From Ginglymostoma cirratum (taxonomy: Eukaryota), in assembly GCA_024137785.1 (NCBI GenBank), contig JAHRHZ010000022.1:31518024-31582023 (forward strand): a DNA stretch of 64,000 bases, read 5' to 3'. Positions within the stretch are counted from its first letter, which is position 1. The number at the start of each line of letters is the position of its first letter. The notes beneath the pieces were generated by a model. It did no database searches. It was not told where the DNA came from and saw only the letters and a list, made by a program, of their open reading frames with translations. Position numbers and translations under genes: made by a program. Below, piece by piece: positions 28,496 to 62,310 of the stretch.

Positions 28496-28593
28496 CCTGA
28501 GGAAGGTTCGCCGGACCCGAAACGTTAACGCTGTTTTTTCCTCCGCAGATGCTGCCAGACCGGCTGAGCTTTTCCAGCAACTTTGTTTTTGTT
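28496..28593 (+). mobile_element. 98-bp Penelope-like terminal insertion (F2) with perfect 10-bp target-site duplication
   Basis: CCCAATTATT at 28486-28495 and 28594-28603 flanks CCTGAGGAAGGTTCGCCGGACCCGAAACGTTAAC..GATGCTGCCAGACCGGCTGAGC..TTTGTT. Confidence 0.85.
28497..28529 (+). ncRNA. Minimal type I hammerhead ribozyme motif (PLE type)
   Basis: CUGAGGA (28497-28503), stem II GGUUC/GACCC with a GCCG loop (one mismatch), GAAA (28519-28522), palindromic AACGUU, predicted GUU cleavage after 28526. The 5' strand of stem I is truncated. Confidence 0.6.
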
Positions 28594-29449
28594 CCCAATT
28601 ATTACTGACTGGTTATGATGCCTTTTGCAATCCAAGAATTGTGATCAATGTCTCCAATTCTTAATTTACCCTCATTCTGTTGTAAATGGCAGGATTACGT
28701 GGACATTATTATCGAATCAAAGAGTGATTACAGAACAGAAGATACTATTTAGTCCATTGTGTCTGTACTGACTCTCTCCACGAACAATTTAACTTGTACC
28801 ATCATCACCGTGGAGGTGCCATTGATCCACACAGGGCACACCCCCACAATACCCTCACCACCAGGTGGCTGACTTCCTAATCATTCCTGCTTTCTCATCT
28901 CGGTGAGAAATTGGACTCTCAACCCTTGCCTGCCCTCCTAAGCTAGCCACTTTACATCATTAGCGGTGTAATTTTGGGTCAGTTGGGTTGTTATCAAACT
29001 GAGTCATCCATTCATGATGTTTTTAGAGAAGGTGGGCGAGCTGCTGATTTCAGTGGAAATGAAATTATGGAAAAGTGAGCTGTTGACATCAGATTCGTGG
29101 CAGGTAGAGTTTATGCAGGATGACAGTTATCCCAATTTTCAAACATAAATTCTTGGCCCTTCAGAAAAGAAATAGCACCTAACATGGCAAAAACTGAGAA
29201 AGACAGAAAACAAAATTATAATCTGGGATGGTAAAGAAGATTTTGCAGGCTAGAAGAGGGTGGATTAGCACAAAGGAAATATGCAACAATTTCAGGAAAT
29301 TATCTTTGGACAGTCTTTCAATTGTTCCCAGGATGTCCTATTTCTCTAAGTATTCCAGAGCCTCTTCTGCCCCATGGAATAAAAACAGCACTTTGCTGGT
29401 GACAGTGAGTTATCAGTGTTCCTTCCATGGTATATTAGACTGTCAGACT

Positions 29450-31022
29450 TGCATTGCCACTTGCTGTATTTGTGAATTATAGTCCTTTCACACTTGTGGA
29501 TGAACATCAGTAACTCACTGTCAACAGATATTGCCTGTGTGGCTGAAGGACATATCTACCAAACTGGACTTGCAGCAAGCGCTGGGGGAACCAACATGAA
29601 GAAAGGAAAACTTATTTGACCGTATCCTCATCAATCTACTTGTCACAGAATCATCTGTCTGCGAAGGCATTGAAAAGAATCACCACTGCACAATCCTCAT
29701 GGAAACCAAGCCCCGCCTTCACACTGAGAGCACTCTCCATCATTTTGTGTGGCACCACCGTGCGAAGTGTGTTACGTTAAACGTATCGAGCTGCTCAAAA
29801 CAGGGCGTTCAGAAACTACTGTGGGCCATTGGCACTGCCAGATTATATATCCCCATAATCTTTAACCTCTTGGACTGATATATCTCTCATTCTACCATCA
29901 CCATCAAGACAAATTTCCAAGCTTGGTTCAAAGGGGAGTGTAAAAGATTTTGCCAGGAAGTCTAACTACAGATCTAACCTAGTGAAGCTGGAACATAAGA
30001 TGATATGGATGACATTTTGTTGCTTTAGCAGTGATCCCAACAGATGAAGTCAAAGCTCTGTAATCATTGTACAATCAGCATCTATGATGGTGAACAAGTA
30101 ACAGGAATAGGAAGCATCATGAGCATGCCCTATCGTTAGGAATGGTCAAAATCAGTTTGAAACTTTAAAAAACACAAGGGTGTAAGCTTCGCAACCATCT
30201 TAGGTTATAACTGTGAAGTGAATTTTCTTTTTTTGACTTTCTGCTGAGGTCCCCACCATCATAAATGCAAGTTTTCGTCCAATTTGGTTCACTACACTAA
30301 GAGACTGCTCTTCATTGAGCACAACAAAGGTTAGCATCCCAGACAACATTGTTTTTCTTTTGTGCTGATTTCCTGTGTTCTTGAGATAAACTCCATTAGC
30401 TAACACGGTTTGAGTATAGCTACAGTACTAACGTCCATTCAGTTTTGCGGTAAATTTCTGATGTACATCTTACAAAACAGAACTAATCCAAGCTAGACAA
30501 TGTATTCCCATTAACCTGCTCCCAATCTTCACCGAAATAGATGGGAAGAATCTGCTACAGAGTGATCAAGTGTAACTTATTCACTAGTTTTCTGCTTCCA
30601 ACATCCAATGTGGGTTCAGAGTATCTCAGAATCAACTCAGAATAAGAGCAGTCCAAAGTAGGACTGAGATAAGAAAGAATAAAATTCTCTGCCCAGAAGA
30701 CTGTGGGCATTCAATTGTTGAGTGTGTTTATAACTGATGCTGACAAATTTCTGAGTATGAAAAACATACAGGGATATGGAGATAGTGCATTATAAGGATA
30801 TCAGTGATAATATCATTGAATGGTAGAATGAGCCCTAAGAGCTAAATGGCCTATTCTGTTCCTATTTCTTATGTTCTGCAAGAACCAGTAGGCTCCAGTA
30901 TTCATTACAATCTTGGTCCAAAGATGGACACAATGCTTGAATGCTAGAGGTGAGGTGAGAATGACAATCCTTGGGATGAAAGCAGGGTTTCATCAAGTTT
31001 TGCGCCAAGGAGACCTGGCAAC
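29450..31022 (+). mobile_element. Decayed CR1-clade LINE family B, endonuclease to RT
   Basis: LKDISTKLDLQQALGEPT..DRILINL..HCTILMETKPRLHTE (APE C-terminus) and LVQRWTQCLNARGEVRMTILGMKAGFHQVLRQG (cf. RT ALDIKAAFDRVWHQG). Confidence 0.8.
30635..30875 (+). mobile_element. CR1 family A 3' tail nested in the family B LINE
   Basis: CTCAGAATAAG..GACTGAGATAAG..GAGCTAAATGGCCTATTCTGTTCCTATTTCTTATGTTCT; the host RT resumes at ~30880. Confidence 0.7.
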
Positions 31023-31029
31023 ATTTGAA

Positions 31030-31342
31030 TGTCTTTATTCTTTCATGGGATGTGTGTATCACTGGCAATGCCAACATCTATTATTCATCCCAAAATGCCT
31101 TTGAACGAAATGGTTTGCTGGGTCAAAGGGCAGTTAAGGATCAACCATATTGTAGTAGAGTAAAAGTCACAGGTAGACCAGGTAAGAATGACCTTCCCAA
31201 AAAGTACATCAGTCAACCATATTGGTTTTTACGATAATTAAGGAGCATATCAGATTTCTACCACTATTGTTCCAGATGTTTTATTCGTGGAATTTGAATT
31301 ACACCAGCTGTTATGGTGGGATTTGAACTCATGTTCCAGAGT
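31030..31342 (-). mobile_element. tRNA-derived SINE (58254 family), older copy
   Basis: TTCATGGGATGTGTGTATCACTGGC tail through GAATTTGAATTACACCAGCTGTTATGGTGGGATTTGAACTC (B box, reverse complement). Confidence 0.75.
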
Positions 31343-31598
31343 TTTTTTTACTTCATTCATGAGCTATGGGTGTCACTGGCTAGGTCAGCATTTATTGCCC
31401 ATCCCTAATTGTCCAGAGGGCAGTTAAGAGTCAACCACATTGCTGTGGGTCTAGTGTCACATGTAGGCCAGGCCAGGTAAGGATGGCAGTTTCCCTCCCA
31501 AAGAGTATTAGTGAACCAGGTGGGTTTTCCTGACAATCGATAATGGATTCATGGTCATTGTTTGACCCAGATTCTTTACTGAATTCAAATTCTACCAA
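31343..31598 (-). mobile_element. tRNA-derived SINE (58254 family), younger 5'-truncated copy
   Basis: Poly-T, then CATTCATGAG..CAGCATTTATTGCCCATCCCTAATTGTCCAGAGGGCAGTTAAGAGTCAACCACATTGCTGTGGGTCT; highly similar to 58260-58525. Confidence 0.88.
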
Positions 31599-31599
31599 C

Positions 31600-34239
31600 G
31601 ACCAGCCAGGAAGTTGGGTAGGTGTAGGCTCAGGTATACAGGTTTGCTGAGGGCCTGGGGAGATGTGACACTAATGGGATTCACAGCGGATCTAGATAAT
31701 TGGGATCTCACTGACACAGAGGTGGAGTCAGGAAACCAACAGCTGAAGAACATTCTCTGTTGCCTTCCATCAAGCTGGGAATCAAAAGTATACAATGGAA
31801 GGGAATTGGCTGCAACCACAATCAATGGGGACAGGTGAGTATCTGGACCTGGCTGTGAGGACTTTAAAGGGAATAAAAGTTATGCACACACCCATGTATT
31901 TTACATAACACTGATCTGATGAGTCTCTAATGCCTGCGTTTCCAAGTAAATTGATTCCCTGTATGCTGTACACTTCTCTGCCCCAGACATTACTGACCAC
32001 CTCATCCTCATTGGTATTTGTAGACAAATGGCTAAGGAAGGAGTAGGGATGTTTTAGAATGAGGGGAAATGTTGTCAGCAGGTCCTGTATATGCCTTGTT
32101 CTTCTTGTTTTCGAATGCTGCAGCAGGCTCTGAACAGAGACATTGATGCATGATACATCCTGTGTGGACGTGAAGTTATGCTGGCGCAGTTATATTTGGG
32201 GTTCACATGCACTCAATCTCACACATGTCGAGCCAGCACAATAAAATTTACATAAATATGTAAATTCACGTACAGTGCAATACAACCTGTAACACCACAG
32301 CATTATTAATAGACTTTCTTCTTTCTCATCTCACTATATCTGAGTGTAAATCTTTGTTCCAAAGCTACTGTGGAGGGAGCCTGATCGACAGTGAAGCCCT
32401 TTGGTTCTGGAAGATTATTTCGGGTGGCCCTGGGAGTGTTTGTGTCTGGATGGCTCAGATGTACTGAGGGGTGTCTTGCCAGAGACAAGTGGACCCTCTT
32501 TGGCTTCCACTTCCATGAGCTAGAGGAGGCCATAGTCAGAAATGATGGGCCCAGTCACTTCCTGGAGTGCACTGAAGGGTGACTTCAAAGGGACCTGTAT
32601 GTCTGGTTCCTTGTCCAGCTGGGTACCTGCTGGCACTGCCCTTCGTGTGAGGAAGTGACACTGCGTGTGCATACCAGGCTACCTGTCCTATTCTTGCTAA
32701 GTCTTTGGCTTTCAGACCGATGGCTAGGGAAATGGAGTGCAGTTGTGTGTGCCTTTCCAACAGAGCCCAAAGGTGCTGTACTTGAGTTTCCATGGCAACA
32801 TAGGACCGGTGCATGTCTCGCTGCAGAATTTGGCCACTGAGGGTCATTGACCCCATGTCCCTGTCAGCTGCTCCTGCTTCTCCTTGTGCATGTGGACAGG
32901 TTGCCAACACACCACGATCCTCTCCTGCCTGGGGCTGAGCAGGTGCCTGGTCTCTGGCAGTGTTCCGAGTGTCAGCACCCTGCGGTGTTTATTCCTTAGC
33001 CAGCTGAGGAGTTGACACAGTGAAGTGCTCGCCAGATGGTGCTCCCACACTTTCTAAGCCTAACATTGCCCCTGAGGCGGCTGTACCTAAGCAGGTGAGG
33101 GGTGCAGAAGGCAGGTTTGCCCAATGCTTTCCTTGAAGCCATGGTACTCTCATCTGCAATGAGCAAGAAGGTGGCTTCTGATGGAGCCAGTGGTTTTCTC
33201 ATGGAGGTGAATGTTTGAGGGTTAACTGTTAGACAAAACAAAGAGAAGGCATTATGACCCATCATTAGAAGTGGTGTGCAATGGCGGACACTGACAGCAA
33301 GGTTAATGTGAGAGTTACAGTGGAATGAAGAGTGATATTTCCTCAGTTGGTGGCCTATGGATGTCTTGGCGTCACCACAAAACAGGTCTCGATCTTCTCC
33401 TGTGAGAACCAAGGGCTGAGCTGTCTACTATCAGGCATCTTTCCTTGCATTAGGGTCCGTCTTGCACCATTATGAGCAGTCTTCTCCTGGAAAGAGACAA
33501 AGGGAGGAATTGGGTGAGGTAGAAGTGGTGGCACAACAGTTAGTGCTGGTGGAGGTTGTGGAAGAGTTATGAAGCACTCAGAAGGATTGTGTAGGCAGCA
33601 CAGAGAGGGAGAAAAAGAATGGGTGAGGGAAGATGTGATAGAGTATGAACGTTGGTGGGAGCAGAGATAGAGTGAGTTTGAGATGGCAGACAGGAGTGTG
33701 GCAGTTATCCTTGTAGAGACAAGATGATCATTGACATTCTTAGAGCACTGCTGGCCATTTCTCTGCACTCGTGAATTGGCACTGTCATGGGTGGCCACTT
33801 TGGACCAGGTTGGCATGGTCTGGAGGAATGCCCTCTTCTGCTGGTCCTCCAGGCCCTCCATTCCAATACCCCATCTAGGAGGACCAGCTGGTCCCTTTTG
33901 GAAAATTGTTGCACCATCTTCCCCTTCTCCGACATCTTCTGATGAACTAACTGTCCATCACCGAGTGGGGCAGCTTCAGAATGCCAGTGCTCATCGGGGT
34001 GCATAACAACTTTTTACATATCCCATGGAAACCAGATATGTATTTGGCAGATGTCTGCTGAGCAGAGGGTTGTTCCAGGAACAATTGTAGGAAGGGGATA
34101 AATTGGAGAGAAATTGCATAGGGATGGAAAGATAATTAGTGAGGTGCGATGACAAGGGACAGTGTGAAATCTCGCTGAACCTGGCAGCAAGAATCTCTCC
34201 AAAAAACCTAACTCACACTTAGCCAAAAAATGTCAGCCC
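31600..34239 (-). mobile_element. PIF/Harbinger relic with intron-containing Myb/SANT-like gene
   Basis: Terminus GGGCTGAC..TTTTTTGGCTAAGT at 34239(-). Frames MSEKGKMVQQFSKRDQLVLLDGV and TWSKVATHDSANSRVQRNGQQCSKNVNDHL, then a pyrimidine tract/CAG and EKTAHN. The left boundary is uncertain. Confidence 0.75.
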
Positions 34240-34902
34240 ATTGATTTAGAATGCCCGCAGGAATCAATTGACATATAGAAGTTAGCCATGTTTCATGGAA
34301 CTGATGGGAATTAGGTCAACAGCAGTCTAAACTACTTTCATTATTATCCGGAAGAGGCAATGAAATGAGTCGGCCAAGTCTCCAAGTGAGGTATGAAAAT
34401 AACTTCATGTTCTATTTGGTTTATCCCATTGTAAGAATCCTCACATGTTGGAGATGAAACCACATCTGCAATTTTTAAGCTTGACATTATACCTGAGTTC
34501 ACATGGAAAGTGCAAACAAGCTGCTGCTTCAAGGATCTCTGTTTTTTGTACTAGATCAAATGGAATGACAATTAACAGGCTGAGAAGGCTCTCGCTCTCA
34601 AGGAAAAAAAATGCTCAGTTTAACAGCCCTGACACATAAGAAACGCTGGAGAATCAGAAACAATGATAACTGCAATATTCATGACTGCTGATGGTGAAAG
34701 AAACAGCCTAACCCATTATGGTCTCAAATTCAAGCCTTTTGCCTCAAGAATATCCAAAAACCGTTTCCAACTCTATCCATTCTAGAAATTTAAGTCCCTT
34801 CTATTCAATTCTTTACATTTTACTTTTTTTCTGCAGTTTCTTTCCTGTGACCTGTGGAATTTTCCATCTTACAATAGAAAACACTCAAAGCTACGAAATT
34901 AG

Positions 34903-35358
34903 GAGCAAATTACTGCAGATGCTTAAATCTCTGCTGAAAACAAAAAAATGCCAGAAATCTCTCAGAGATATTAGGAACTGCCGATGCTGGAGTCTGAGAT
35001 AACAAGGTGTAGAGCTGGATGAACACAGCAGGCCAGGCAGCATCAGAGGAGCAGGAAAGCTGAAGTTTTGTGTCTGGACCTTTCTTCAGAAAGAAGGGCC
35101 TTGACCCGAAATGTCAGCTTTCCTGCTCCTCTGACGCTGCATGGCCTGCTGTGTTCATCCCGCTCTACACCTTGTTATCTTATGCTAGAAATCACAATGG
35201 GTCAGGAACATCCATGGAGAGAAAGCAAGCTAACATTTCAAGTCTAGATGACTCTTCATCAGAACTGTTGAAGAGTCACTTGGACTCAATGTTAGCTTGC
35301 TGTCTCACCATGGATGCCGCCTGACCGGCTGTGATTTCCACCATTTTTAGTTTTCAGT
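34903..35358. mobile_element. Hairpin Penelope-like terminal element (F3), interrupted by an F1 element
   Basis: Arms GAAATCAC..CATCCATGG..GCAAGCTAACATT..GACTCTTCATCAG / CTGTTGAAGAGTC..AATGTTAGCTTGC..CCATGGATG..GTGATTTC. Minus-strand CUGAUGA-A-GAGUC/GACUU-GAAA. TSD-like AAGCTACGA at 34888-34896 and 35360-35368. Confidence 0.8.
34962..35181. mobile_element. Hairpin Penelope-like terminal element (F1)
   Basis: AGATAACAAGGTGTAGAGCTGGATGAACACAGCAGGCCA..AGCTGA inverted against TCAGCT..TGGCCTGCTGTGTTCATCCCGCTCTACACCTTGTTATCT. TSD-like ATGC(C/T)AGAAATC at 34948-34959 and 35182-35193. Confidence 0.9.
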
Positions 35359-35673
35359 CAAGCTACGATCTTAAACTTCCCTAGCTTCTAATAGTCCGCA
35401 GACTTCTAAGTGAACTCTCCTGGTTTGGAATTTTCACAAACTACTCTTTTGCTGAGGCAACATATTCCCTGAACTGTTCTGAGACATCCCTTTTTATGAG
35501 TGAACCTGTACTTGCTCTGACCACCACATGTTTTCTGACTGAACTGAGAAACTTGTTTCCGACCCCAGTCAGCTCTCCACAGAACTGCGCTAAAAACATT
35601 CTGTCCCTGAAATTTTTAAACTAAAATCAATCATTGCTTATTCTAAATGGAAAACAAACCAATTGAACCTTTA

Positions 35674-35875
35674 TAAAACAAGGAACTGCAGATGCTGAAG
35701 ATCTGGAACAAAAACAGAAATTGCTGGAGAAACTCGATGGATCAGACAGCATCCGTGGAGAGAATGCAGACTTCATGTTTCTTGTCTAGTGACCCTTTTT
35801 CAGTTCTGATTCCACTTTCTTTCTGCAGATGCTGCCAGATTTGTTAAGTTTCTCCAGCAATTTCTGCTTTATTTC
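35674..35875. mobile_element. Hairpin Penelope-like terminal element (F2)
   Basis: CAGAAATTGCTGGAGAAACT..CAGCATC inverted against GATGCTG..AGTTTCTCCAGCAATTTCTG; centre GACCCTTTTTCAGTTCTGA. Confidence 0.8.
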
Positions 35876-36469
35876 TCATGGTCTTGCTGCTTACTGTGGG
35901 GTTTATAACGAGTATAGTATAAACATTTTCTTCCATTTGACATTTTAGGGGTTTTCCTAAACTCTTGTCTCTAATCATCTCTGACAAATATTGGATGTAA
36001 TCGGTGTTCTGGAAGAATTCTCCGACCTTTACTTTACAGAAAATCCTTCATACAGCACACCTTTCATCACAAGAGCTTTACTACTGCGCGGCATTGCAGC
36101 TACTCATAGTGCCTCAGCAGAGAGCTGCCAACGCTTGTCTAATGAGGCTGGGTGAATTTGAATCTGTAACTGCACTTAAGAGTCAGAAACAGCACTTGAA
36201 CATTTGACTCTTGTTTGCTATTTTTGACAGCCCAATTTGGCTTTGAATCAAAACAAATTCACAAAAAGAGTTGATTTCAAACTTGGGACTATTCACAGTC
36301 ATACGACATATGGTGTTAGGTTGTATAAACAGACAGATGAACTCCACTGCTGGATATCCAGAATTTTAGCAACTAGGCAGTCCATCCCTCATAAAGTTCT
36401 GCGGAAATGCCTCTGCAAAGTTACTTAGAAGGCACAAAGGTAGTTTGAGATGACCTGAATTTTCAGCAA

Positions 36470-37600
36470 GCCTTTGAAGTACTCACAGTAGTTTACTTCA
36501 CAAGGTAGAATTTTGTGGTATCAGTGAGAATTTGATACACTGCATTAAGAATTGGCTCCTATCCCGCAGGCTACAAATTGTGGTTAATGGTTGTGTATCA
36601 GCCTGGAAACAGGTTATCAGTGGTGTACTCAAGAGATTTGTAGGACCCTTAATGTTCACTGCTTTTTGTTAATGATCTGGACAGAATTTGGATGTGTGGT
36701 CAGCACATTTGCTGACAGTAAGAAAATTTATTAAGGCTGTAGAGTACCACAATTTTCTCCAAGAAGATCTAGATCTGTTCAGACAATGGCAAATGCCACT
36801 TTAATGCAGTGTGAGGTATGCAGCTGGGCCAATACAGCACCTATTCATCACATAAAAGGCATAATGCTGGGAATGACTGACAGAGAAAACAATCTAGTCC
36901 TTTTCCACTGATCATGACTGATGCAGTAAAGCCTCAGTCAAAGCAAACAAGGTGATGGGCCACATTCATAGGTACAAGACCAAAGGACGCTATTCTGCCC
37001 TAATGCAGGTCCATGGTTAGATTGCGTCTAAAGTACTGTGCCCACTTTAATTTCTATCACATAATAGATCATATCCTTGAAAAGGATTTGAAACAGTGCA
37101 ACATAAATAATTCCTATCTTGCATAACCTTAGCTTCTCTCAAAGACTTAAAGAGCTGAGTTTATTTACTTTAGAACAGCATAGGTTTGAAGGAGATTTGA
37201 TAGAGGTGCATAAAATAATGAAAGAGCAGAATCACGTTCACATTGAACATTTTGTTTGTTATTTGTTCAAAGGATGTGGGTGTCACTGGCTAGACTATCA
37301 TTTATTCCCCATCCTAATAACCCTGGAGACAAGAGTTGGTGAGCTGTCTTCTTGAGCCGCTGCACTCTTTAAGGTGCAGATACACTCCGTGCTCTTTGAA
37401 AGGGAGATTTTAACCCAATTTTCAGTTTGACAGGTTGGGGAGGGTATAGTGGTGCACATTTAAACTGTACAGCAATAAGAATGGAGTAGATATTAGGCAA
37501 TTCTTATTACCTTAGAGTGTTTTGGGCCTTGGGATATATTTCCAGGCAATCCAATTGGGTGTTGACTCTCTGCCCAACTGAGATACATTTTCAGCAGTGG
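36470..37600 (+). mobile_element. Old CR1 LINE RT to 3' region
   Basis: LNFQQAFE, IKNWL, VISGVLK, VNDLD, STFADS, SQRLKELSLFTLEQHRFEGDLIEVHKIMK. Confidence 0.75.
37255..37420 (-). mobile_element. Family B LINE 3' tail nested in CR1
   Basis: GGATGTGGGTGTCACTGGCTAG..CATTTATTCCCCATCC..GGTGAGCTGTCTTCTTGAGCCGCTGCA, colinear with 690-845. Confidence 0.75.
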
Positions 37601-38530
37601 ATTAAGCTGACACCATTTTAGGTACATGATTTGGCCTGGTGGTACTTCATGAAACTGTGCAGTGCTTCGGCCTGTCAGATGGTAGTATCAGTCCATATTG
37701 AACCAGTGACAGAAAAACAATATCATCAAAATATGTATATTCTCAGGCATTAGGTAGAAATTTATGCTGTCTACGGTGCTGAAGTTATATTCTAATTATT
37801 GTCAGTCGGAAGGCTGGATAGTTATTTCATTGTTAAGAGCATACTAAATGTTCTTGCCTTGGCGATGAAGTAACAGGGTCATTGTCACTCCTCTTGTTGT
37901 TTTTAAGCAGTTTTATGTTATCTACTAGACTGTAATGTTCTCTAAATTGGCTGTCCATTTTCTTGGAGAGTGTGTTCTACCTAAAGGTCAGCAAGGTTAA
38001 TAACACTGATGAGTCAAGGCAACATCCTTTTCAGCTATGATAGTTGGGAAGTTGAATGACTTGCTCTCTCACTGCATTCTCCAATGAATGTATTCCATTT
38101 GTAACTGGGCTTTTCAAACACCAGTCCTAAAGTATAGCAACAACGTATTCCAAATCTACTGAAATATTTGCTTCAATAAAATTGTACAGTTTTGTTTTAG
38201 TAAATATTTATGAATACCATTTAAGTTAATAAAGATGAGGAAGGAAATTACACCTCATTTTTAGAACTCCTGTAGACAAATGGATTTACATATCTAATAA
38301 GATTCTCTTCATCATTGGGTGCTTTGATGTGGGCGTGGAGCACTCTTCACATTATGCTTACTGACCTCCTTTGCTGTGTGCAATCTGAGAGGAACTGGTG
38401 CTGGCATTAGCTGCATTAAGGCAAACTATTGTTAAAGGAAGGTGCTTTAAATGGGTGTAAAATGCTCCATTTGATTACGAATCTGCCTGCTTCCAGAGTG
38501 GAAAAAGGAAATTTGTTGTTTATCTTACCC

Positions 38531-38726
38531 AGAAGTCACATGACACCTGGTTGCAGTCCAATCAGCTTATTTAAAATCACAACCTTACGGAGTGCTGCTT
38601 CTTCACCTGATTATTAAGCAGCAATCCAGAAGCTTTTGATTTTCAGTAAACCTGTTGGACTCCAACGTGGTGTTGTGTGACTTCTGACTTTGTCCACCCC
38701 AGTCCAACACCAGCACCTCTACATCA
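38531..38726. mobile_element. Hairpin Penelope-like terminal element (F4)
   Basis: AGAAGTCACA..AGTCCAA..TTAT..AAATCACA inverted against TGATTTT..TAAACCTGTTGGACT..TGTGACTTCT. The centre carries degenerate CUGAUGA-AGGAGC/GCUCC-GAAAGCUU motifs. TACCCAG is repeated at 38526-38532 and 38734-38740. Confidence 0.75.
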
Positions 38727-41700
38727 TATCATATACCCAGTATGGTGAATGACATAAGCCCACACTTGCTTTCAGACTGTCATGTTACTATGTCAACCAT
38801 TTTCCAGGCAGTTAGATTTGGTCCTCTTGCTCTCTGTTAAAAATTACCATATTAAAATGGGTGTGAAGCTGAGTCTGCTGACTTGACCCGATCTTTGCCC
38901 AACTTTTAACCCTATTTCATGAGGAGACTACACTAGATATAATATATATGCATGTCATGTATGTGCATAGGATTCAATGTATGTCCTTAGTGGCCGTAAT
39001 TTCCAATGTCTTAACTGATTGTTTTGACATTAATTAGTGGCAATTAATTCCTTCTGATAAATGACTGTATTGTTTCTTTGACACTCCTACCATGAAGCTA
39101 ACCTGAAACACCACATGTTATAACAACCATGCCAACTTCCAGAAGAATTCATCCATATATGAGCAGTAAGACATAATAGCCTCCCAGCCAACGTGAAATT
39201 AATTTTAATTTTAATGAGATCTCTGCAAGAAATGGTTGTTTTCTAGTGGCTATCGCTTGCAACAGCTTTTTTGTCCCACTAGAAAAGCTAGTGAGAATGA
39301 AAAAGAGGACTTCAGTATTCAATTGACGATAGAGAATGACTTCTGGAAAGCTGAGATACTGGGTTGTGAATTGTGTTAACAAGTTCTTTCCAGTGTTAAG
39401 AAAACTGAATTACAACACTAAAACATTCCACAGTACTTTCCGAGTAAGCTAGTATTAAATTTGAGTCTTGCTCACTTTTAGGGTAATTGTTTCTTTTAAA
39501 AGCAGCATTTCCAATTAACTGCTCAGATTTCAGGCCAGAAAATCATTTTCTCAATTAATCATGAGAACACTTTTGCAGCAAAAAGGATAACAAAAGTAAA
39601 ATTGGAATGGAAAATAATATTTTTCATTTTCGTTTAATCACGCAGTTATTTAGATCAACATAAACATCTTTTTTTCTGAGATTTACTGGGTGCAGCAATG
39701 CTGCGGTCCTTTGATTCTCCAGAACTTCGCATTCTTTGTGAGCCACATGATTAGACTTGACAACAGCAAAACTATACTCTGTGATTGATTCAGCACAACT
39801 CTCCTTTTAACCTGAACTTTTCTGATATATTTAGTAAACACTTTGAAGTCTACATTCCAAGTGCCCCTCTTGGTAAGGATTGTCACATTCACACTAACTA
39901 CTGCGTAAAATTTTCATGCAACACTTGAATTGCAACATTTTGATTTCGTTCCCCATCCTGATAAAATCTGGTTAAGAGAAATCAGTTGGAGCTTATTATC
40001 AATCATTAGTTGAAAGTGATTGGGGCTATCTTCGTATTTGGAATTGAATCATTGATTTACTTCCCATTTTTCTGATTATGCCTACTTTCATTATTTGACT
40101 GTAAGGTCTTTGTTGAAATCAATAAATAAAAAGATACATTGCCTATCTTTGGGCTGCATGGGGCAAATGGAATTAGACAATGTGCCAATTACTACAGTTA
40201 TTGAGGCATTTACTTTGGGAGAGGACATTTTGAATGACATCAAGGTCTTTCTGCAGATTTGCAGTTTTGTTTTAAGAAAAGAATGCAAGCTCTTAATTGT
40301 GTAACAGTCCCAAGAGGAGAAGTGTTCATTTACTAATTGTAATGCGTAGGCAGCACACTTCCATGGCACTGTTATCGCACACAGTCAGAGTGATGAGGCT
40401 GTTGACTACATTAATTTGAATGCTTCGTTAATGACATCCCCAACATTAAGGCAGGTGAACAGAATGCCTTACAATTACCTGCAAATCTACCTAACGTAAA
40501 AACACATGACAGTTTGCTACCACTTTGCCTGATGTCAAAAATAAACACAATTACACAGACTTACTCAGGTTACTCCATTACCCTGCACTGGTTTCTAATT
40601 TATAACAATGTGATTTTTTTTGGGAAGGAAAATATAATTTTAATTATTCTTGGGAATTGCCAATTAACTAACTCATTGGTCAATTCTGCATGTCTGAAGA
40701 TTCTCTCTCTTAACCTCCATTTCTCACATTCCTCTTCATTTTCTCTTTCTTTTACATTTTCTCACAAGTACAGTATATTGAGAATGGGAAACAAACAGCC
40801 AGATAATACAGCCAGTTTTCCCTATATTTTAGCATCCAAAAAATGGTTACTGTATGCCAATGATACAATAGAATTTTCAAATCATTTCCACATGTTCTGA
40901 GCCAGACTGCTCACAGGTGAAGGGCATGAGACATATTCAAAGTGCTTCTTTTCAGCTCCATGGATAAAGCCGCACCAAATTTCCACTCATATTCAATCAA
41001 TAAATTATTTTGAATGGAATGAGGAAAAGTAACAATTACATTCTTTTATTCTGGTCGACTAGACTATCGTTGAGATGTTTGTATTGTGTTTTCGGAAACT
41101 TGAGCTGTAACGTAAGCAGCAAGCTTTTAAGCACATTTTGTACGCACAATTTCCCACTTGCATCCAACAGAGAAATTTTACTCCCTATTACTATTCAAGG
41201 TACAGTCAGAATCAACAGAACTTTGTCTAAAAGTGTACTATAACTCAATGATATTTTCTTAATTTTATTTCTGTCAGTTCCAGGGAACGCTGTGATTTGC
41301 CACAATGTTTTCAATCACTAGAATAATTCACTTCTATAACGTCGATGTCACTTATACAACAGATTTAATTTACATATTTAATGCGATATTGTTTCACTTC
41401 TGGAGCAAAATTGGAATGTAACCTATTGCCAGTAATGATGTGGTGGGAACTGTCCTCTTAAGGCATGGCTCTGGAATGAGGAGTGTAAATGTTTGCCTGC
41501 AGCATGAGGCATGCGGTTGCTGAGCAACAAATGCTTTAACAGGACAATGTCACCTCACTGGAGTCCTTGTGGTCTTAAAGTGATACAAACATTACAGCCA
41601 ATGTTTGTAATCTGAGTTGCGTATTAAGATTTGGTATATTGTAAGTGTGGCAGAAACGATGTCAGTGGTAATTAGATTCCAATAGAATTCCCTCTTGGGA

Positions 41701-44720: not shown

Positions 44721-45249
44721 GGGACTGAATTTCCCACTTTCAATGGAAGTGTGTTTGAGTGAGATTCATGGCACTCAGAGTGCCTATTCTCATACAACGT
44801 TTGCCCCTTCACCTCACTAATTATGCATCTGTGTTGTATACCCTTCTTGTGTGGCAGGAAAGGCAGAAGAGCTGGTCACTGCCAGGCTGTGACATTCACA
44901 CTGCTGGCACTATGTTTAAAAGCCACACCGTGTGGAGCTGGAGGAACACAGCAGGTCAGGCAGCATCAGAGGAGCAGGAAAGTTGACATCTCGGATTGAA
45001 ACCCTTCTTCATTTGCTGAAATCTATGAGCTCTGGTTGGACTTAACATCTGACTGACACTGGCCAACCCCCAGAATGTAATCAGGCAAGCTCCTTGACTT
45101 GTCTGTGATGGTACTCCCCGACTCACTCTCAGGGAATTGGAAATATTTTTTCTCGACACCCAGATTCTGAGTGCTTTCATTCTTTCCATAACTTCGCAAT
45201 TTTCTTGCCATTGCCCACGTTACTCCAGAGAGGGCAAGATTCTGCCCCA
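44721..45249. mobile_element. Non-autonomous Harbinger-like MITE
   Basis: Ends GGGACTGAATTTCC and GCAAGATTCTGCCCC; internal inverted GCACTCAGA/TCTGAGTGC. Confidence 0.55.
44925..45010 (-). mobile_element. Single arm of an F1 Penelope-like terminus inserted in the MITE
   Basis: GTGTGGAGCTGGAGGAACACAGCAGGTCAGGCAGCATCAGAGGAGCAGGAAAGTTGACATCTCGGATTGAAACCCTTCTTCA; the minus strand begins at UGAAGA of the hammerhead core. Confidence 0.85.
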
Positions 45250-50084: not shown

Positions 50085-50175
50085 AAACTCCTTTAAGCCT
50101 ATTGTAACAGAAAAAAGGTGAAGCAATTTGCATCGGTTGCCTAGGAACAAGCTTTGCGTGCTTAATGGCAGTTCA
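50085..50175. promoter_or_regulatory. Candidate enhancer core: Sox-like site, octamer, RFX X-box
   Basis: CTATTGT (~50099-50105), ATTTGCAT (50126-50133) and GTTGCCTAGGAAC (50136-50148) in repeat-free sequence. Motif matches only. Confidence 0.3.
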
Positions 50176-53760: not shown

Positions 53761-53919
53761 CTGCCACTGAGCATTCTGCTAGTCAATAGTATATTTCATG
53801 CTGTAAATATATTGATGAGTGGCGTAAGAAGTTTGCATGCTGTCTGTCTCAACTCGAGCAAGTGTGGAGTAATTGTACATCATGATCTATGCACGAAAAA
53901 AGGCTGAATCATATCTTTA

Positions 53920-54260: not shown

Positions 54261-55238
54261 AACATCTTTGAACAGTTTGGTTTCGAAAATATCTAGAATC
54301 CAGCTGATGCTGAGGTAAGGGGTTGAATTTCCCCATTCCCTTGAGGCAGATTAAAAGGTGGGACTGGGAATCGAGTTGAAAATTTGGATGTTGTTCGATC
54401 AGTTGTCCCACTTTGATGTCACTGCTCGGATCTTTCAGATATTTCCAGCTCCTGGACTCTGGCAGGTAACTGGACACCACCTCTCAATGATGTGCCAAGA
54501 GGCCATCCATGTTATCTCTCGATTACACAACAATATGGACCCACTGCGACTTGACGGCCTTGATCAGCTGAGTTCACCAGACATCTTGTAGCAGCCCACC
54601 AACACCGCCACCCCCACCCTACTTTGGTGTCCGGTCAGTTGTAACCATAATAATATTATTTTTAGATTTATTGAGTGGTATCTCCATTTTGAAGTGCGCA
54701 GCTCACATTCTCCCACGTTGTGTTGGCAAGTCCAACCTTTGCTGGTGTGACTCCTAGCCAGACATTGCTATGGGCCCTCACACTGGTTTCCCTGTTCCAT
54801 TTGGGCGCCATCATTAATTTGACCCTTGTGGAAAAAATTACAATTGATGGTCCACCACCCCAATCTGGGATCCAGAATTTTGGCCAATATCAGGACGATG
54901 AGCCGTCCTTGACATCTCAGGCCAATGACAATAAGGTATAGATATACCACTGATCTAGTGTACATTGGAACCTGTTAATGAAACTACCCAATGTTAATTT
55001 CTGTATGAAACAATGAATTTGAGAATAAGATGGCTTTGATAAAGGTCGGCTAATCCATGATATTTTTACAATAAGAAGGAAATTGAAATTCTAATCCATT
55101 GTATATAACATCGAGACAGCAAATTCAAAGCACCATTATTTTAAACTTCAAACATTATTTTAAATTTTAAACATTGACAGTAGGAGAGGGTTGCTAAAAC
55201 AATCAGTAGACTAATTTGGGTTGTTTGCAAGGAAGTCC

Positions 55239-55460
55239 TTCTCACAAAGTGAGATAGTAAGAACTGCTGATGCTGGAGTCAGAGATAACGGAGTGTGGAG
55301 CTGGAGGAACACAGCAGAAATTTATAAAGAAGGGTCCCAAACTGAAACGTCTGCTTTCCTGCTCCTCTGATGCTGCCTGGCCTGCTGTGTTCCTCCAGCT
55401 CCACACTCTGTTATCTCTGACTCCAGCATCAGCAGTCCTTACTATCTCACTTTGTGAGAA
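55239..55460. mobile_element. Hairpin Penelope-like terminal element (F1) with inverted flanking sequence
   Basis: About 78-bp near-perfect arms TTCTCACAAAGTGAGATAGTAAGAACTGCTGATGCTGGAGTCAGAGATAAC.. / ..GTTATCTCTGACTCCAGCATCAGCAGTCCTTACTATCTCACTTTGTGAGAA; internal AGAAGGGTCCCAAACTGAAACGTC. Confidence 0.9.
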
Positions 55461-55779
55461 ACACTTGTGCACTGTGTTCCACAAAGTGATATGTTTTGTG
55501 GTTTTTGATATGTTAGTCTGCATTACATGTACTGGAGAGTCCAATTATTGTTGAGCCAGATGTCTTGAAATTTATTAGCAACACTATTTACATGACAAAA
55601 ATCATCCAGACTTGAATACACAGTCTGGGTTCAACACGTACTGATATTGCTGTACATGATATACACATAGCTAACGAACTGAAGACATCGTACTGACCTC
55701 ATGGTACAGAGACTGATTGAAAGTGAGGTGGGTACCTTTGTGCTGAAATCTCGCATCTCATGGAACTGACTTCAAGGTA

Positions 55780-56076
55780 CAGGCCTGTTGAATCTGGGAT
55801 TTATGCTGTAATACACCACAAAGAACAAAGAATGAATCTCCAGAGAGCATAGTTTTGCAAAAGCTCTGAAGGATGTCAAGGAGCAACATGATATTGTGAT
55901 AGAGTTGTAGGTTCACTCTGGGAAAATAAGTCAAATAAATAGCCTTCTTCATCTTTATGTCACTTTTGGTATTGAAAGTGTTTAAAAATCAGTGACTATT
56001 GTCATAATTTTGTGGGAGACATTCATCTTTATTTACAATCGCTTATTAGATAAGTCATTACAGTCAAAGTACTTCA
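55780..56076 (+). repeat. Direct repeat copy 1 (~300 bp)
   Basis: CAGGCCTGTTGAATCTGGGATTTATGCTG..CAGTCAAAGTACTTCA, near-identical to 56911-57200. Confidence 0.95.
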
Positions 56077-56910
56077 TTGTATCTGAAGTAGAGATGCTCT
56101 GAGAGATGTGAAAATGTTCTATGAACTCAAGCCTTTTATATTTATAGTCAATAGTAGAAACGTGATAGACACCATATTACAGAGTCTAACACTGCCACTG
56201 ATGCAGAGTTGTGAAATAATGACCCCTTGCCCTTCAATAACTGATGCACTGTATCCTGGGAATTATAGCATTAATATAGTGATATTGCCTCTGTTAGATG
56301 GAAAAGCAGATTAAGCGGATGGTTATGTAATTGAATGTTGTCACTAGCAGGCAGTAGCAGGTCCTCTATTCACAAACCTAACTACATGGTTCATTAAATA
56401 AATGAACTATATAAAACATTGTTCAAGATTGCATTCTTGTAAAATAACCTTTGTTTTCTCCAGCGCTTTGTTGAAGAACAGCTGTCAGTGTAAGATATCA
56501 TGAAATATACTGAAGTTTTACTGTTTCTCTTTTCCAATGACCTGTGCATGTTGCTGTGATTTTTTTTCAGTTATGATAGAAAATCCTTTTGGCATAATTC
56601 TACACTACTGAAAGAAAACTAAGGGCTGAATCTTATGTTTTTTTTTGGCTGAGTTTGAGTTCTGTTGAGTTTGGAGTGTTATTTGCTTGCGGTCTAGTGA
56701 GTTATCTCAATTTGTCTTACCAAGCTTGCCTCATTAATTGCCTACTCTGTCCCTATGGTTTCTCTGTCTGATTTCTGCTGCATTTTATCGCATACTCTTC
56801 GCAATGCAACTCATCACTCAGCGGATATTCGTCCAAATACGCCATCCCTTGTGCCCGTGGCAAATTTGAAAGGCCACTGTGTATCCAGGTAAGTGTTGGC
56901 AGTCTGGTGT

Positions 56911-57200
56911 CAGGCCTGTTGAATCTGGGATTTATGCTGTAATACACCACAAAGAACAAAGAATGAATCTCCAGGAAGCATAGTGTTGCAAAAGTTCTGA
57001 AGGATGTCAAGGAGCAACATGACGTTGTGATAGAGTTGTAGGTTCACTCTGGGAAAATAAGTCAAATAAATAGCCTTCTTCATCTTTATGTCACTTTTGG
57101 TATTGAAAGTGTTTAAAAATCAGTGACTGTTTTCAGGGAGATATTCGTCTTTATTTACAATCATTTATTAGGTAGCAGTCATTACAGTCAAAGTACTTCA
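56911..57200 (+). repeat. Direct repeat copy 2 (~290 bp), inside a Harbinger relic
   Basis: Same start and end as copy 1, with scattered substitutions and a short indel near 57130. Confidence 0.95.
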
Positions 57201-57629
57201 CTGGCCACGTCATGGCCTTGTAGCCACAAAGCTACGACAGCCATGGCACATATTCACATGTGAAACCTCATTCACTCACTCTAGCCACTATTGAGCTATC
57301 ACGCCACACACTTTACCTCTCTCTCGCTACCTTCTGTCCAAACTGCCTAAACACCCTCCAAGTCAGTGCTACCCTGTCCCTACTGTAGACCACATCTTAT
57401 CATTGATCAGTATGGGAATATCACATACAGACAAGCAAATACGCACACAAACACAAATGAGATTTTATTTTCAGAATGCAAAGGGGAACAAAAACAAAGC
57501 TAAACATTGCCCTTACAGCGCCATTGAGTTTTAGGAAACATGACCAAAAAAATGGGTCAAGGGTTGCCTTCTGGACCCAGGTCTCTTCCATTCTTCCAGC
57601 TCTCAATCTGTCTGGCTTGTAGTGACCAT

Positions 57630-58015
57630 CACATCTGAACTCTGTCATGGACAGCTTTGGCTTTGTTCACTCCAATGTCTTTGTCATCCTCCATGGAAGA
57701 CTGGTCCTGTTCTCTCAGTTTCTCAGCACATTGCCTCATTGCCTGCTCCATTTGTACAGGGCACAGCATATCAGAATGATGCAGCACACTCTGTCTAGAC
57801 TGTACTGGAGGGACCACTTCAGACCAGTCCAAGCAATAGAACTGCATATTCAGCAGCCCGATTGCTTGCTGTGTCATGGCACTGTTGAAGCATGGGCAGG
57901 ATTATATCTATGTTCTGCATCAGTCAGGGGGTAGTGCGATGGTGTCATGAGCCAAGGTCACAGTAGATAGCCCTTGTCCCATAGTAACTAGAAAGGTACC
58001 TGGACCCTCAAAATA
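57630..58015 (-). pseudogene. HARBI1-like DDE transposase C-terminal remnant
   Basis: Minus strand across frameshifts: LWDKGYLL*PWLMTPSHYPLTDAEHRYNPAHAST / AMTQQAIGLLNMQFYCLDWS / LQYSLDRVCCIILICCALYK. This matches the Harbinger GDKGY..WLMTP..YN.AH..IE..IGLLK.RF.CL..CC.LHN pattern. Confidence 0.85.
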
Positions 58016-58019
58016 CAGA

Positions 58020-58978
58020 TCACCAGAACATTGAGCAATTGAAACTCCTTGTTGGAAATTCTGCTGAAACACCTGACCTGAGGGAACCATCAGCTGTGAC
58101 CCCTACATGTGGAGGCTGTTCAGCAGCTGCTGGTCCTGGGCTTGCTGGTGTACTTATTCCTCTTCGCCTTTGTTGTGCCACGGCCACAGTGAATCCATTG
58201 GACATGATTGCAGCGGAGCGGTCTCCACTCAATATTAGACTAAATAGATCTTAGTTTTTTTTTGTTTATTCATTCATGGGATGAGGGTGTTGCTGACCAG
58301 GCAGCATTTATTGCCCATCCCTAATTGCCCAGAGGGCAGTTCAGAGTCAAACATATTGCTGTGGGTCTGGAGTCACATGTAGGTCAGACCAAGTAAGGCT
58401 AGCAGATTTCCTTCCCTAAAGGACATTAGTGAACCAGATGGTTTTTTCCCTGAGAATCAACAATGGGTTCATGGTCATCAGTAGATTCTTAATTCCAGAT
58501 TTTTTTTATTGAATTCAAATTCCACCGTCTGCTGTGACAGGATTCGAACCCGCGTCCCCAGAACGTTATCTGGGTCTCTGGATTAACAGTCCAGCGATAA
58601 TACCACAAGGCCACTGCTTTCCCTGAGGAGTCAAAGTTATTTTGAGTTAATGTACTGCAGAATCTTAATTTTCTTCAGGCTTAAAGGTTTGTGTGTGTGT
58701 ATATGTATGTATGTTATTTTCAAAAAGGTTAATTAGACATATTGCATGTTTTAAATCATTTGTTTATAATTTGTGCATCTTCGTTTAACTCTTTTTTTTT
58801 CCAATAAAACAACATTTGCTTACTAAAGGAACCTGGCTGATTTGTTTCTAAAAATGTGATCTATAGACTAGATCAGTTGGCAATATCAGCTCCCATTAAA
58901 ATTTAAATTCGATTGTGGCCAGTGGCAAGAGGGATGAAGGAAATAAATCAGTTCACTCACACTAACTCAGTTGTAACA
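58020..58978 (+). mobile_element. Possible LTR fragment interrupted by a SINE
   Basis: Truncates the transposase; AATAAA at ~58803 and ends ..CTCAGTTGTAACA, like an LTR U5 end. Confidence 0.35.
58254..58624 (-). mobile_element. Full-length young tRNA-derived SINE sharing its tail with family B LINE
   Basis: Minus strand: A box TGGCCTTGTGG (58603-58613), perfect B box GGTTCGAATCC (58540-58550), and tail GGGCAATTAGGGATGGGCAATAAATGCTG..CATCCCATGAATGAATAAA plus A-rich end. Confidence 0.92.
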
Positions 58979-59299
58979 AGCGCCAGTCCCTAAACTGGAG
59001 TCCTTGTGTATAAAATTGAGTCACCGTATCTTATCATCTGCACTGCATTTGCTTTCCTCCTCCAGAACAAACAGTTCTCAGGTGCCTGAAATTAAAAAAA
59101 GATGAGGGTTGGTCTTACGAGGAGAGGGAAGAATGTAAGAAGAGTATTGTTACAACGTCTGCAATTTATGAATCATAGGGGGATAAGACATGAGTGAGAA
59201 TTGAGATGAGAGAAGGAGGATTAGGTATACAGAAACCTTTTGTCCTTCTCGTCCCATCAATGACCATGCGTTCAGTTATTCTCTTTCCCAAGATGGTCA

Positions 59300-59900
59300 G
59301 CAAGGGGTTGCGCAATGCAAGTAGACTTGTTCTCCTTCAGTTCTTTCTTGTTACTTGCTGTCATGCATCACCTTCTGCAAAAGAGAGGGAACTTTGTCAG
59401 TAAATGTCGTAAATTATGTTTGGGCGATGTGACTGTGATGGTTGAACAGTTGTAAGTAAGTGTGAGCATGTGTAAAGTTTGCAACAAATGTTAAGAGGGA
59501 GAGGATGAGGTAAAGCATTTGAGTATAAAGGTTAAGTATTGAATGATTATTGTTGGTTGACGGTTACTGGAGGTCAGAGGGGTCTACAGCATAGACAAAG
59601 GCCCTTCAGCCCATTCAAATATGCAGAGGATTGAGTGGTGGATGAGGCTATTGGTAGAATATGGTGTTTCAAGATGATCTCAGTTACTTTAACAATTTTT
59701 GTCAGATCATTAAACCCCTGCCTGCATTGCGTCCATGTTGTTGGAGGAACATTCTTCTTATTGATCTCTACCATTGGTAGGCTTTCCTCTAGCAATTGAA
59801 CATGACAGGGAGGATGAAGAGAGGCCACTCCCATGAAGTATGTTATCAGAAAGGTCGCTCACTTCATTTTTTTTTTTTGCACAATCTGAGTAAACCTGTG
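59300..59900 (-). mobile_element. PIF/Harbinger Myb/SANT-like gene remnant (family of 23660-24060)
   Basis: ORF 59574-59834(-) VEINKKNVPPTTWTQCRQGFNDLTKIVK followed by a GTAACT donor. Confidence 0.6.
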
Positions 59901-60189
59901 AGTCAAAAATCAATATATTTGCCTGAAATGATCATGCAGGTAGCTATTCCATTTAAACTACACATTAGAGTTCCTACTCTACTTTCTTGAGTCTTAGGGT
60001 TCTGGAGCAGTCCTAATTCCCTTTGAGAAGGTGGTGGTAAGCTACATTCTTGAACAACTCTCATTGTGTGGAGTAGATACATCCACGGTGCCACATAGAG
60101 AGACAGGGTGCACACGTGTGCACTTGTGATCATGTTTCTTTAAAGTGGGTGAAATGGAGAACACAGCCTTTTGTAAAATACCTGTTTAT

Positions 60190-60420
60190 TTGGTTAAGAA
60201 TATAATTATAGGAATTCCTCTATTATTTTCACATATTGGTTTGAACTTACTCCCCTTAAGGCATCGACCACACTGTCTGATTGCACTGTTCTGGACACTA
60301 AGAATTATCATGTTGTGGAATATGCTATTTAGTCCCCTTTCAATCCTAAAAGCAGCGATAATATCACCCGTTAATCTTCTCCTTTCCAGTGTGAACAGCC
60401 CCAGACTAATGATGCAGCCA
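60190..60420 (-). mobile_element. CR1 C-terminal fragment
   Basis: LGLFTLERRRLTGDIIAAFRIERG. Confidence 0.75.
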
Positions 60421-61179
60421 AACTGTAACCCAAGAAAGTTTTTCTTCCAATGTGGCAGGTTAAAGCGGTCTGGGAACAAGTAGACAGTTAGACAGGCACA
60501 GTAAAGCTTAATGCTTATAACTAATGAGGTTTATTCACCCCAAAGCTGTTAGGTGCACTGATGAACAAGGCTTTAACAGGAATTATTTTCCAGCGTGCAT
60601 CTCCCAAATCTCAACTCTTTCCTGTCCTCAAACTGAACTATTCCACTTCTTATCTTTCCAGTGTTAAATTTTGGGTGTTTGTGACCACAGTTTTCTAACT
60701 ACAGACAGTTAAACATTTGTAAGGAATTTTCAGATAGCTTATTAAGAAGCAGCAATGTAAATGTGATAAATTAGTTAATTAGACAAAAATGATATGAAAG
60801 TCGGAAGAATTGAGAATGGTTCCCTGATATCAGAGGACAAACAGGCAGTTAGCTCATTTAAATTGTGACATCCTGCTGTCCAGTGAAATAAGAAATTCCT
60901 CTCTGATTCTTCCTTCAATCTTTTCAGGTCCACCTTCTACTTGAAGAAGGCAGCTTCCTGATGAGGGCTGTCTTCTGACACTGAGCACTTGTTAATATGC
61001 TCAATTTCTAGGGGCTGGTAGTTTATGTCATGTCAATCACCCATTTGAATTCTTTCCAGTCAATGGACATGAGATAACTTCTCATGACATCAAGATAAAC
61101 ATTCCTTCATCTGACGGTTATTTTTCATTCTTTTTGGAACAGAACCTTTTTACTTCCCTGAACAGTGCATTACTGACAG

Positions 61180-61370
61180 GGGGCACATGGTACGCGGTTG
61201 GCTGGATGACTGGTTTGTAACATAGCGTGATGTCAACAGCGTGGGTTCACTTTCTTAACCCAAACTTCCTTACCATGAAGCACTGTCCTTTTCAATTTTT
61301 CCCCTCGCCTGAGGAGTGGCCACGCTCAGAATAAGCCACCTCCAGTCAGCTCCTCTGCAACTGTGATGAC
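61180..61370 (+). mobile_element. tRNA-like SINE (further family), degraded
   Basis: GTTGGCTGGATGACTGGTTTG..CAACAGCGTGGGTTCA..CCCCTCGCCTGAGG..TAAGCCACC layout of a shark SINE. Confidence 0.5.
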
Positions 61371-62077
61371 TGTACTTTGCTGTTCCTGCATTTGAACCTT
61401 TTGAGATTCATCTATGAGGACTCCTATTCGCTTAACCTAGCTATACAGGTCTGCATACTTTCCTATCTATCTTCGTGTCATCTGTAAATTGAATATATAT
61501 GCCTTCACTCCTCTAATCAAAATCATTGATGTAAAGTATAAAAGAATTGTGGCCCCAGCACAGACCTGTGCCGGACACTGCTCATCACACCTTGCCATCC
61601 AGGAGAAGTCCCATTTTTGCAAACCGTTTTCTACCAGCCAGCTAATTGTCTTTCCATGCTCTTCACCCTTACACGATGAGCTCCTACTTTGTTCAATGTC
61701 CTTTTTAAGTGACATCTTGTCAAATGCATTTTGCAAATCCAAGTGCAGTGCAGTACAATTACAGATGCCCCTGCTTGTTAGTCTTTATGAGAGTTCCAGT
61801 ACGTTGCTTAAATATGATTCCCCTTCCAAAAAATTGTATTGATTCTTCTTGATTATCTTGCGATTTTCCAAGTGTGCAGCTATAACCTTCTGTATCCTCC
61901 TTAACGATCAATTCCAACAGCTTCCCGATGACAGATGTCAAGCTAACTGGGTTAGAATTTCCTAATTTCTGCCACCCTCTTTTTGAAAGAAGGAGGTTAC
62001 ATTTGCAGCTGAGCTGTTTGATGCAACCTTCCCAGAATCTAGCAAATTTTGGAAAGTTAACGTCAAAGTAGCTACTA

Positions 62078-62310
62078 AGATAACACACAGTGTGGAGCTG
62101 GAGGAACACAGCAGGCCAGGCAGCATCAGAGGAGCAGGAAAGCTGATGTTTCAGGTCGGGACCCAAATTTTCTGAAGAAGGGTCCCGACCTGAAACGTCA
62201 CGTTTCCTGCTCCTCTGATGCTGCTTGGCCTGCTGTGTTCCTCCAGCTCCACACTGTGTCATCTCTGACTCCAGCGTTGGCAGTTCTCACTGTCTCTGAG
62301 TGAGTCATAC
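62078..62310. mobile_element. Hairpin Penelope-like terminal element (F1) with ~14-bp TSD
   Basis: About 85-bp arms around centre CCCAAATTTTCTGAAGAAGGG. TSD-like CAAAGTAGCTACTA (62064-62077) and CAAAGTATCTCCTA (62311-62324). Confidence 0.92.
62172..62199 (+). ncRNA. Minimal hammerhead ribozyme motif with intact core
   Basis: CUGAAGA (62172-62178), A, stem II GGGU/ACCU with a CCCG loop, GAAA (62192-62195), palindromic ACGU, GUC cleavage triplet ending 62199. Confidence 0.65.

Follow-up and report, generated by a model that had tools for sequence, protein, structure and literature searches.

Clustered 5' ends of Penelope-like element copies in Ginglymostoma cirratum probably mark the start of a capped RNA

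Introduction

Why should independent copies of a short repeat begin, or fold back on themselves, at almost the same base? The question is raised by a 64,000-nucleotide (nt) stretch of the Ginglymostoma cirratum genome (assembly GCA_024137785.1, contig JAHRHZ010000022.1, positions 31,518,024 to 31,582,023 of the forward strand; hereafter the window), in which solitary repeats and hairpin-like pairs have ends close to CUGANGA, the core motif of a hammerhead ribozyme. The repeats represent 3' fragments of Penelope-like retrotransposons with a GIY-YIG endonuclease. The original prediction, made from the window alone, held that their ends cluster at the ribozyme core and not at its cleavage site, and attributed them to fold-back priming at a quasi-palindrome or to stalling of the reverse transcriptase (RT) at the folded ribozyme. 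All motifs that it named are present in the window where it had placed them. In the following, positions in a copy are given relative to the C of CTGA in the hammerhead core, which is 0.

Our analysis points to a different origin. We consider it quite likely that the ends, which lie 3-7 nt before the core, correspond to the start of a capped RNA reached by run-off of the RT, and that the hairpins consist of two separately primed complementary DNAs (cDNAs).

Clustering of 5' ends before the ribozyme core

For an unselected sample we took 100 10-kb stretches with position as the sole criterion, 40 stretches beside them and the window, together 1,175,032 non-N bases. Arms were located by their 3' part alone and their 5' ends mapped on subfamily references; we retained an arm if 30 or more bases beyond +30 aligned with an identity of at least 80%. 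Among the 125 arms of family A, 44 start at -8 to -1, 4 at -99 to -9 and 33 upstream of -99; of the 110 arms of family D, 48 start at -7 to -1, 7 at -99 to -9 and 13 upstream of -99. Uniform truncations simulated through the same pipeline gave a flat distribution, with 46 of 600 (A, -8 to -1) and 44 of 600 (D) falling into the peak (Fisher p 3e-20 for A and 3e-22 for D; the tests omit 36 A arms starting upstream of -40 and 13 D arms starting upstream of -99). The clustering of 5' ends just before the core is thus confirmed. A uniform distribution of breakpoints, the outcome that the original prediction had set against itself, describes the simulated controls but not the observed ends, which are peaked in families A and D and, by tally, in C. 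There is no second peak at the predicted cleavage site (+27 to +30), where only 4/125 (A) and 3/110 (D) arms start; self-cleavage is not the source of these ends, in line with the earlier view that it does not account for them on its own.

Genome-wide (4.36 Gb), exact motif matches number 15,932 for D and 63,396 for A1, and we tallied 100 rows each for A1, D and Cx. Of the copies that are not long, 35 of 35 end within -7 to 0 in A1 and 72 of 74 within -6 to 0 in D; in Cx, 87 end within -9 to 0 and 3 at -11 to -14. The share of long, TATA-bearing copies varies strongly with family, being about 65 (A1), 26 (D) and 10 (Cx) per 100 rows.

The peak is not confined to paired arms, since 21 of 46 peak copies in A and 33 of 51 in D are solo copies without an inverted arm. 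Two copies that bear open reading frame (ORF) sequence, L291 and L292, likewise start at -3 and -4. In contigs from four sequencing runs of three studies, loose ends at -3 occur in 68, 74, 8 and 26 contigs, which by their nature are unable to show an RNA start. Loose ends near +30 in these contigs were considered as cleavage-site junctions and rejected, as they look like a subfamily difference.

A common boundary could also be inherited. If the short copies descended from a few short non-autonomous masters starting here, their breakpoints would not be independent, and it is true that the Cx core variants may share one ancestor and that a few rows are duplicates. However, no position out of 92 separates short from long copies in A0 and A1, and in D a single one does so nominally; as far as such positions can tell, the two share one lineage and age. 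Short copies also have unique flanks and varied partner arms, ORF-bearing copies begin at the same base, and the pattern is common to three families. We therefore regard descent from short masters as very improbable.

TATA box, initiator and an extra G

In five subfamilies, long copies carry a single TATA-like hexamer in the upstream 160 nt, 29-32 nt before a pyrimidine-A. The hexamer lies at -36/-35 in A0 (44 of 58 copies), at -35 in A1 (33 of 38), at -33 in D (8 of 16) and at -39 in C3 (-37 to -40 in 8 of 13); in one Cx copy, counted by hand, it lies at -37. A distance of about 30 nt from TATA box to initiator is canonical. In families A and D the initiator-like A stands at -4, in C3 at -8 and in Cx at -7, and the peak of 5' ends tracks this arrangement, being located at -4 in A and D and at -7 in C.

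Short copies show a further signature, an extra G at the peak; it occupies the position in front of the initiator A, which is C in the template. The genome-wide count for Cx, which omits the T-G class since the inverted arm can supply it, is 94 G versus 58 A or T (expected share 0.257, p 7e-21), and G is absent at this position from all 13 Cx rows that are long or partly long. The extra G is present in 50 of 100 D rows (36 of 86 without confounded rows, p 8e-4) and in 55 of 100 A1 rows (45 of 90, p 7e-7). At full-length L1 junctions an extra G has been described as a mark of the cap (PMC11702581; this and the other papers are cited for the portions of their text that were covered), and the G in copies starting at the peak is as expected from cap copying.

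As a side observation, T is found at -4 in 12 of the 22 family D rows whose copies start at -3; this may be an untemplated base, but is not significant on this sample. A splice acceptor at the peak was considered and rejected, as family A has no AG there and the upstream letters vary from copy to copy, with no shared exon.

Construction of the hairpins

From all loci studied, some of which had been selected, we assembled 67 distinct short pairs (37 A, 30 D). An arm ends at -9 to +1 in 49 of them, and both arms do so in 14. The 3' ends fall on two sites separated by some 33-37 nt (about +93 and +125/127 in A, +96 and +129/133 in D), and 57 of the 67 pairs have exactly one tail, i.e. one arm extends to the near site and the other to the far (tail) site, which is expected from two separate priming events. 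Many pairs are flanked by target duplications. At the joints, 29 pairs overlap by at least one base, so that the microhomology sought by the original prediction is indeed found; 13 joints are nearly blunt and 25 contain at least three inserted bases.

For the regeneration of the pseudo-long terminal repeat (pLTR) and for head-to-head repeats, PMC2377424 sees no obvious mechanism, and PMC3846280 proposes self-priming on an antisense template for the palindromes. In the related form put forward by the original prediction, fold-back at the quasi-palindrome around the core both makes the inverted arm and fixes the breakpoints. The overlapping joints would suit this, and in 23 pairs the tailed arm contains the other arm, as fold-back allows. 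One pair, at 55233-55466 of the window, is a true fold-back product, in which 12 nt of its own flank are copied in inverted orientation, but it is the only one of 67 with this signature. In another 23 pairs the arms are not nested, the tailless arm reaching further 5' than the tailed one (in L286 even continuing into the ORF), so that, barring subsequent deletions, neither arm can have been copied from the other. Fold-back further leaves unexplained why the end of the second arm is fixed at the near site, why solo copies show the same peak, why the peak shifts with the TATA box and why there is an extra G, which a palindrome would not supply. As the main cause it is largely refuted and appears very improbable. 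The strands of the hairpins were likely primed separately and then joined; the palindrome-like core aids the joint, but does not set the peak.

At many joints (L058, L193 and rows of D and A1, 10 of 100 in A1) we also observed that the initial 7-10 nt of the stub are duplicated in tandem, which suggests repeated re-priming or templated insertion while the ends are joined.

The ribozyme fold and polyadenylation as sources of the boundary

The second cause named by the original prediction, stalling of the RT at the folded ribozyme, can be considered together with exonuclease trimming of the RNA up to the fold, as both would place the ends at the 5' boundary of helix I. For families A and D this agrees with what is seen: the helix has 4 bp and starts at -4, the position of the peak. 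Family C breaks this coincidence: helix I of Cx also has only 4 bp, as in D, yet 40 short Cx rows keep the A at -7 and the C at -6. Moreover, the modal end in A and D (-3) lies inside the helix, and neither process yields an extra G at one fixed base. Stalling in particular should act elsewhere, as an RT moving 3' to 5' would have unwound the whole ribozyme by -3/-4 and would be predicted to stop near +19 to +32 instead. We therefore consider stalling, and with it trimming, no less improbable than fold-back.

The least probable origin is that the 5' end is the downstream product of polyadenylation cleavage at CA: TATAAA is a weak poly(A) signal and the modal boundary falls just past CA (at -3 in families A and D and at -6 in Cx), but family A has TATTTA, which is no sense poly(A) signal, the spacing of 29-32 nt better suits a TATA box, and copies keeping the A with a preceding G cannot arise from a cut after this A.

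A run-off model and the points against it

In the model we favour, the transcript would begin at the initiator A about 30 nt behind the TATA box and would carry, at its front and again at its back, the hammerhead together with the internal priming sites at about +93 and about +125. If the RNA is uncleaved and the front pair of sites is used, the cDNA would be 100-135 nt long and end at the cap, often 1 nt short of the start and in some cases extended by a G copied from the cap. Both strands of the cut target would act as primers, each for its own cDNA, usually one per site. Two cDNAs joined head to head via short overlaps or inserted bases would form a hairpin, and a single cDNA joined to the target would leave a solo copy.

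Several observations weigh against this model. The capped start is deduced indirectly from genomic DNA copies, via the extra-G signature, and the extra G could be an untemplated addition independent of a cap. It gives no signal in the small local sample (1 of 6 A solos and 2 of 12 D solos, too few copies), and each of the 100-row tallies (5' ends in A1, D and Cx, extra G in D and A1) was made by hand and covers the first 100 rows as ordered by contig. The modal boundary lies one base past the initiator A (in D solos, G at -3 is present in 29 of 33 and A at -4 in 14 of 33), and part of the copies retain -5 or -6. Helix I starts at the very position of the peak in A and D, and the two are separated in family C alone. 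Target duplications are found in only 10 of 21 A and 13 of 33 D solos (controls 1 and 0). In the text covered, the Penelope element of D. virilis is described with a TATA-less promoter located further upstream (PMC2377424), and an unrelated Penelope-like element (L299:401-3330) lacks a TATA at -30, which shows that this layout is not shared by all such elements. For other organisms we found only two metagenome loci, one of them with pLTRs and without a TATA at -30. The unrelated element has direct repeats 2,885 nt apart and a CAG 4 nt before the core, a layout resembling that of the D. virilis intron.

A possible template jump

The run-off model could be part of a retrovirus-like copying cycle. 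The strong-stop cDNA of the front repeat, anchored to the target, would jump to the back copy via the shared start-to-tail sequence and thereby regenerate a TATA-bearing pLTR; stubs and hairpins would then be failed jumps. Among 20 loci chosen by a front ORF piece, 5 have a stub starting at -4 to -12 directly behind ORF sequence. In L292, L295, L296 and L298 (G000:C18, C40, C41 and C12), ORF pieces of 750-1370 nt are joined in direct orientation to a stub starting at -4 to -8, the joint falling in the middle of the ORF, and in three of these four, L292, L295 and L296, the join lies inside one target duplication; L298 has no such assignment. As a cDNA primed in the back repeat would have no reason to stop at -4, the most fitting reading of these joins is run-off and a subsequent misdirected jump. 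Upstream of the unselected A solo stubs no ORF piece was found (0/21), and such joins are rare outside ORF-selected loci. We regard this extension as a tentative possibility, with the balance tipping against it.

Composition of the elements

Apart from their ends, the elements are of an ordinary, already known kind: judged by sequence, their layout matches that of endonuclease-bearing (EN+) Penelope-like elements with minimal hammerheads (PMC8557442, PMC3846280, PMC4209133). Other copies extend further upstream than the window repeats, through a pyrimidine-rich untranslated region (UTR) into GIY-YIG coding sequence; about 3.4 kb further, hammerhead and tail recur as a front copy that is continuous with the ORF. 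L293 is a partial tandem of this kind (pLTR), in which an upstream 3' UTR, TATA, hammerhead and tail continue into the ORF. The objection foreseen by the original prediction, that the pLTR simply starts at the core, thus fails for the DNA element, which continues upstream, but would come close to the truth for its RNA.

L294 encodes a C-terminal GIY-YIG endonuclease (Pfam PF01541, 26.8 bits against a cut-off of 22.6), preceded by a C-X4-C-X2-C linker recognized by eye. The linker agrees with the CX2-5CxxC motif upstream of GIY-YIG that defines the Neptune clade (PMC8557442). The candidate RT motifs DKG and YIDD were read by eye in broken frames; seven fragments gave no RT match in Pfam, and PDB searches likewise gave none. 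In L291, L292 and L293 we looked for an ATG at the hammerhead and found none; the first ATGs are at about +45 or +150-160 (family A).

The minimal type I hammerhead in the pLTR was recognized from its sequence and its helices, both in a motif search and on visual inspection, and is predicted to self-cleave; an Rfam scan of the window gave no match at the gathering score. Non-LTR retrozymes, which consist of head-to-tail tandem units with a hammerhead in each (bioRxiv 2026.07.22.740005), were rejected as an identification, as the window contains no head-to-tail array and the copies studied are solo or head-to-head.

Copies in the window

Four of the copies listed in the original prediction belong to family A. 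The pair centred at about 62170 (62078-62297) is head-to-head, with a minus arm covering +8 to +92 (62164-62078, no tail), a tailed plus arm covering -3 to +125 (62169-62297) and a 7-nt target duplication. The fold-back pair described above, centred at about 55322, has tails on both arms (plus arm -4 to +124, minus arm +58 to +124). In the pair centred at about 35088 (34964-35180), the minus arm covers -3 to +125 and has the tail, and the plus arm covers +5 to +93. The fourth is a solo copy on the minus strand (44925-45011, +1 to +87).

Three copies are of D/B type. A family D solo copy on the plus strand (28486-28603, listed as 28496) is bounded by 10-nt target duplications at 28486-28495 and 28594-28603, and its sequence extends from about -1/0 to about +97. 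An old family B pair centred at about 35260 (35187-35340) was delimited by eye, with a minus arm reaching about -5 and a plus arm from about +1, and an old D/B-type pair centred at about 35803 (35673-35875) combines a minus arm of -7 to +133 with a plus arm of +40 to +92. The single family C copy, a head-to-head pair centred at about 38605 (38530-38727) and likewise delimited by eye, has a plus arm from about -6, a minus arm at about +1 and a 5-nt overlap at the joint. A further family D solo copy on the minus strand (19038-19100), unlisted in the original prediction, is truncated at +37 and thus lies off the peak.

The hairpin centres are near the core because one arm only ends there; the ends of the partner arms range from +1 to +58.

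Three other observations from the window concern sequence outside the peak. A 26-nt inverted repeat with an 80-nt spacer (29396-29527) matches none of the families studied. Family D has, at about +30 to +50 (28527-28547), a pyrimidine run followed by CAG and ATG that resembles a 3' splice site; the AG is absent in family A. Family C has AATAAA or AGTAAA at about +38 (38645-38655), between hammerhead and priming sites, which is absent in A and D; if this signal were used in the back repeat, the RNA would end 5' of these sites.

Comparison with known systems

EN+ Penelope-like insertions share with the copies studied here partial tandems, an inverted 5'-truncated copy, a tail of 30-40 nt on one arm and target duplications (PMC8557442, PMC3846280). 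In the text covered, the inverted copy is called 5'-truncated, whereas in our copies the inner ends are concentrated at a single base, accompanied by an extra G, and one pair in three is non-nested. A TATA with an initiator-like motif has been noted before in the pLTR of a rotifer element (PMC3846280).

The minimal type I hammerheads of metazoan Penelope-like elements (PMC4209133) are alike in CUGANGA, one bulged base, stem II, GAAA, a palindromic stem III remnant and a 4-bp helix I, and their motifs, too, are mostly single and dispersed, some in opposite-strand pairs. That study proposes cleavage and a circular RNA template, whereas the short copies here would stem from RNA uncut at the front hammerhead.

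Full-length L1 insertions with twin priming (PMC11702581) resemble our copies in the extra G at the RNA start, in a second strand that primes its own cDNA and in joining by microhomology. L1, however, primes at the poly(A) tail and its second primer anywhere, whereas here both primers would use fixed internal sites, so that both arms share the same end.

We found no paper that maps 5' ends of Penelope-like elements to a capped start, with subscription papers and Repbase/Dfam notes mostly outside the literature covered and Fig. S2 of PMC11167929 possibly showing the same boundary. Nor did the literature covered yield anything combining a Penelope-like element, a hammerhead and a TATA box, and the promoter is not treated in the covered text of bioRxiv 2026.07.22.740005 or PMC7229834.

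The closest counterpart is Poseidon of Anolis carolinensis (PMC11167929). In both systems two internal priming sites, putative here, define the tail, both target strands are, or here would be, cut and extended, and the template is, or here would be, uncleaved RNA; the hammerhead lies about 100-150 nt upstream of the priming sites in both, and in the anole system 5' truncation shortens the product. Genomic 5' ends, a TATA box with initiator and a cap signature are not treated in the text covered, and the elements studied here differ in having the Neptune-type cysteine linker. If the peak is the capped RNA start, the genome holds tens of thousands of natural records of an uncleaved template in vivo, of priming at the front of the RNA and of priming by both target strands. 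The genomic record would then agree with the in vitro anole system and provide it with direct tests, and the start site would hint at how the poorly understood Penelope-like family copies itself.

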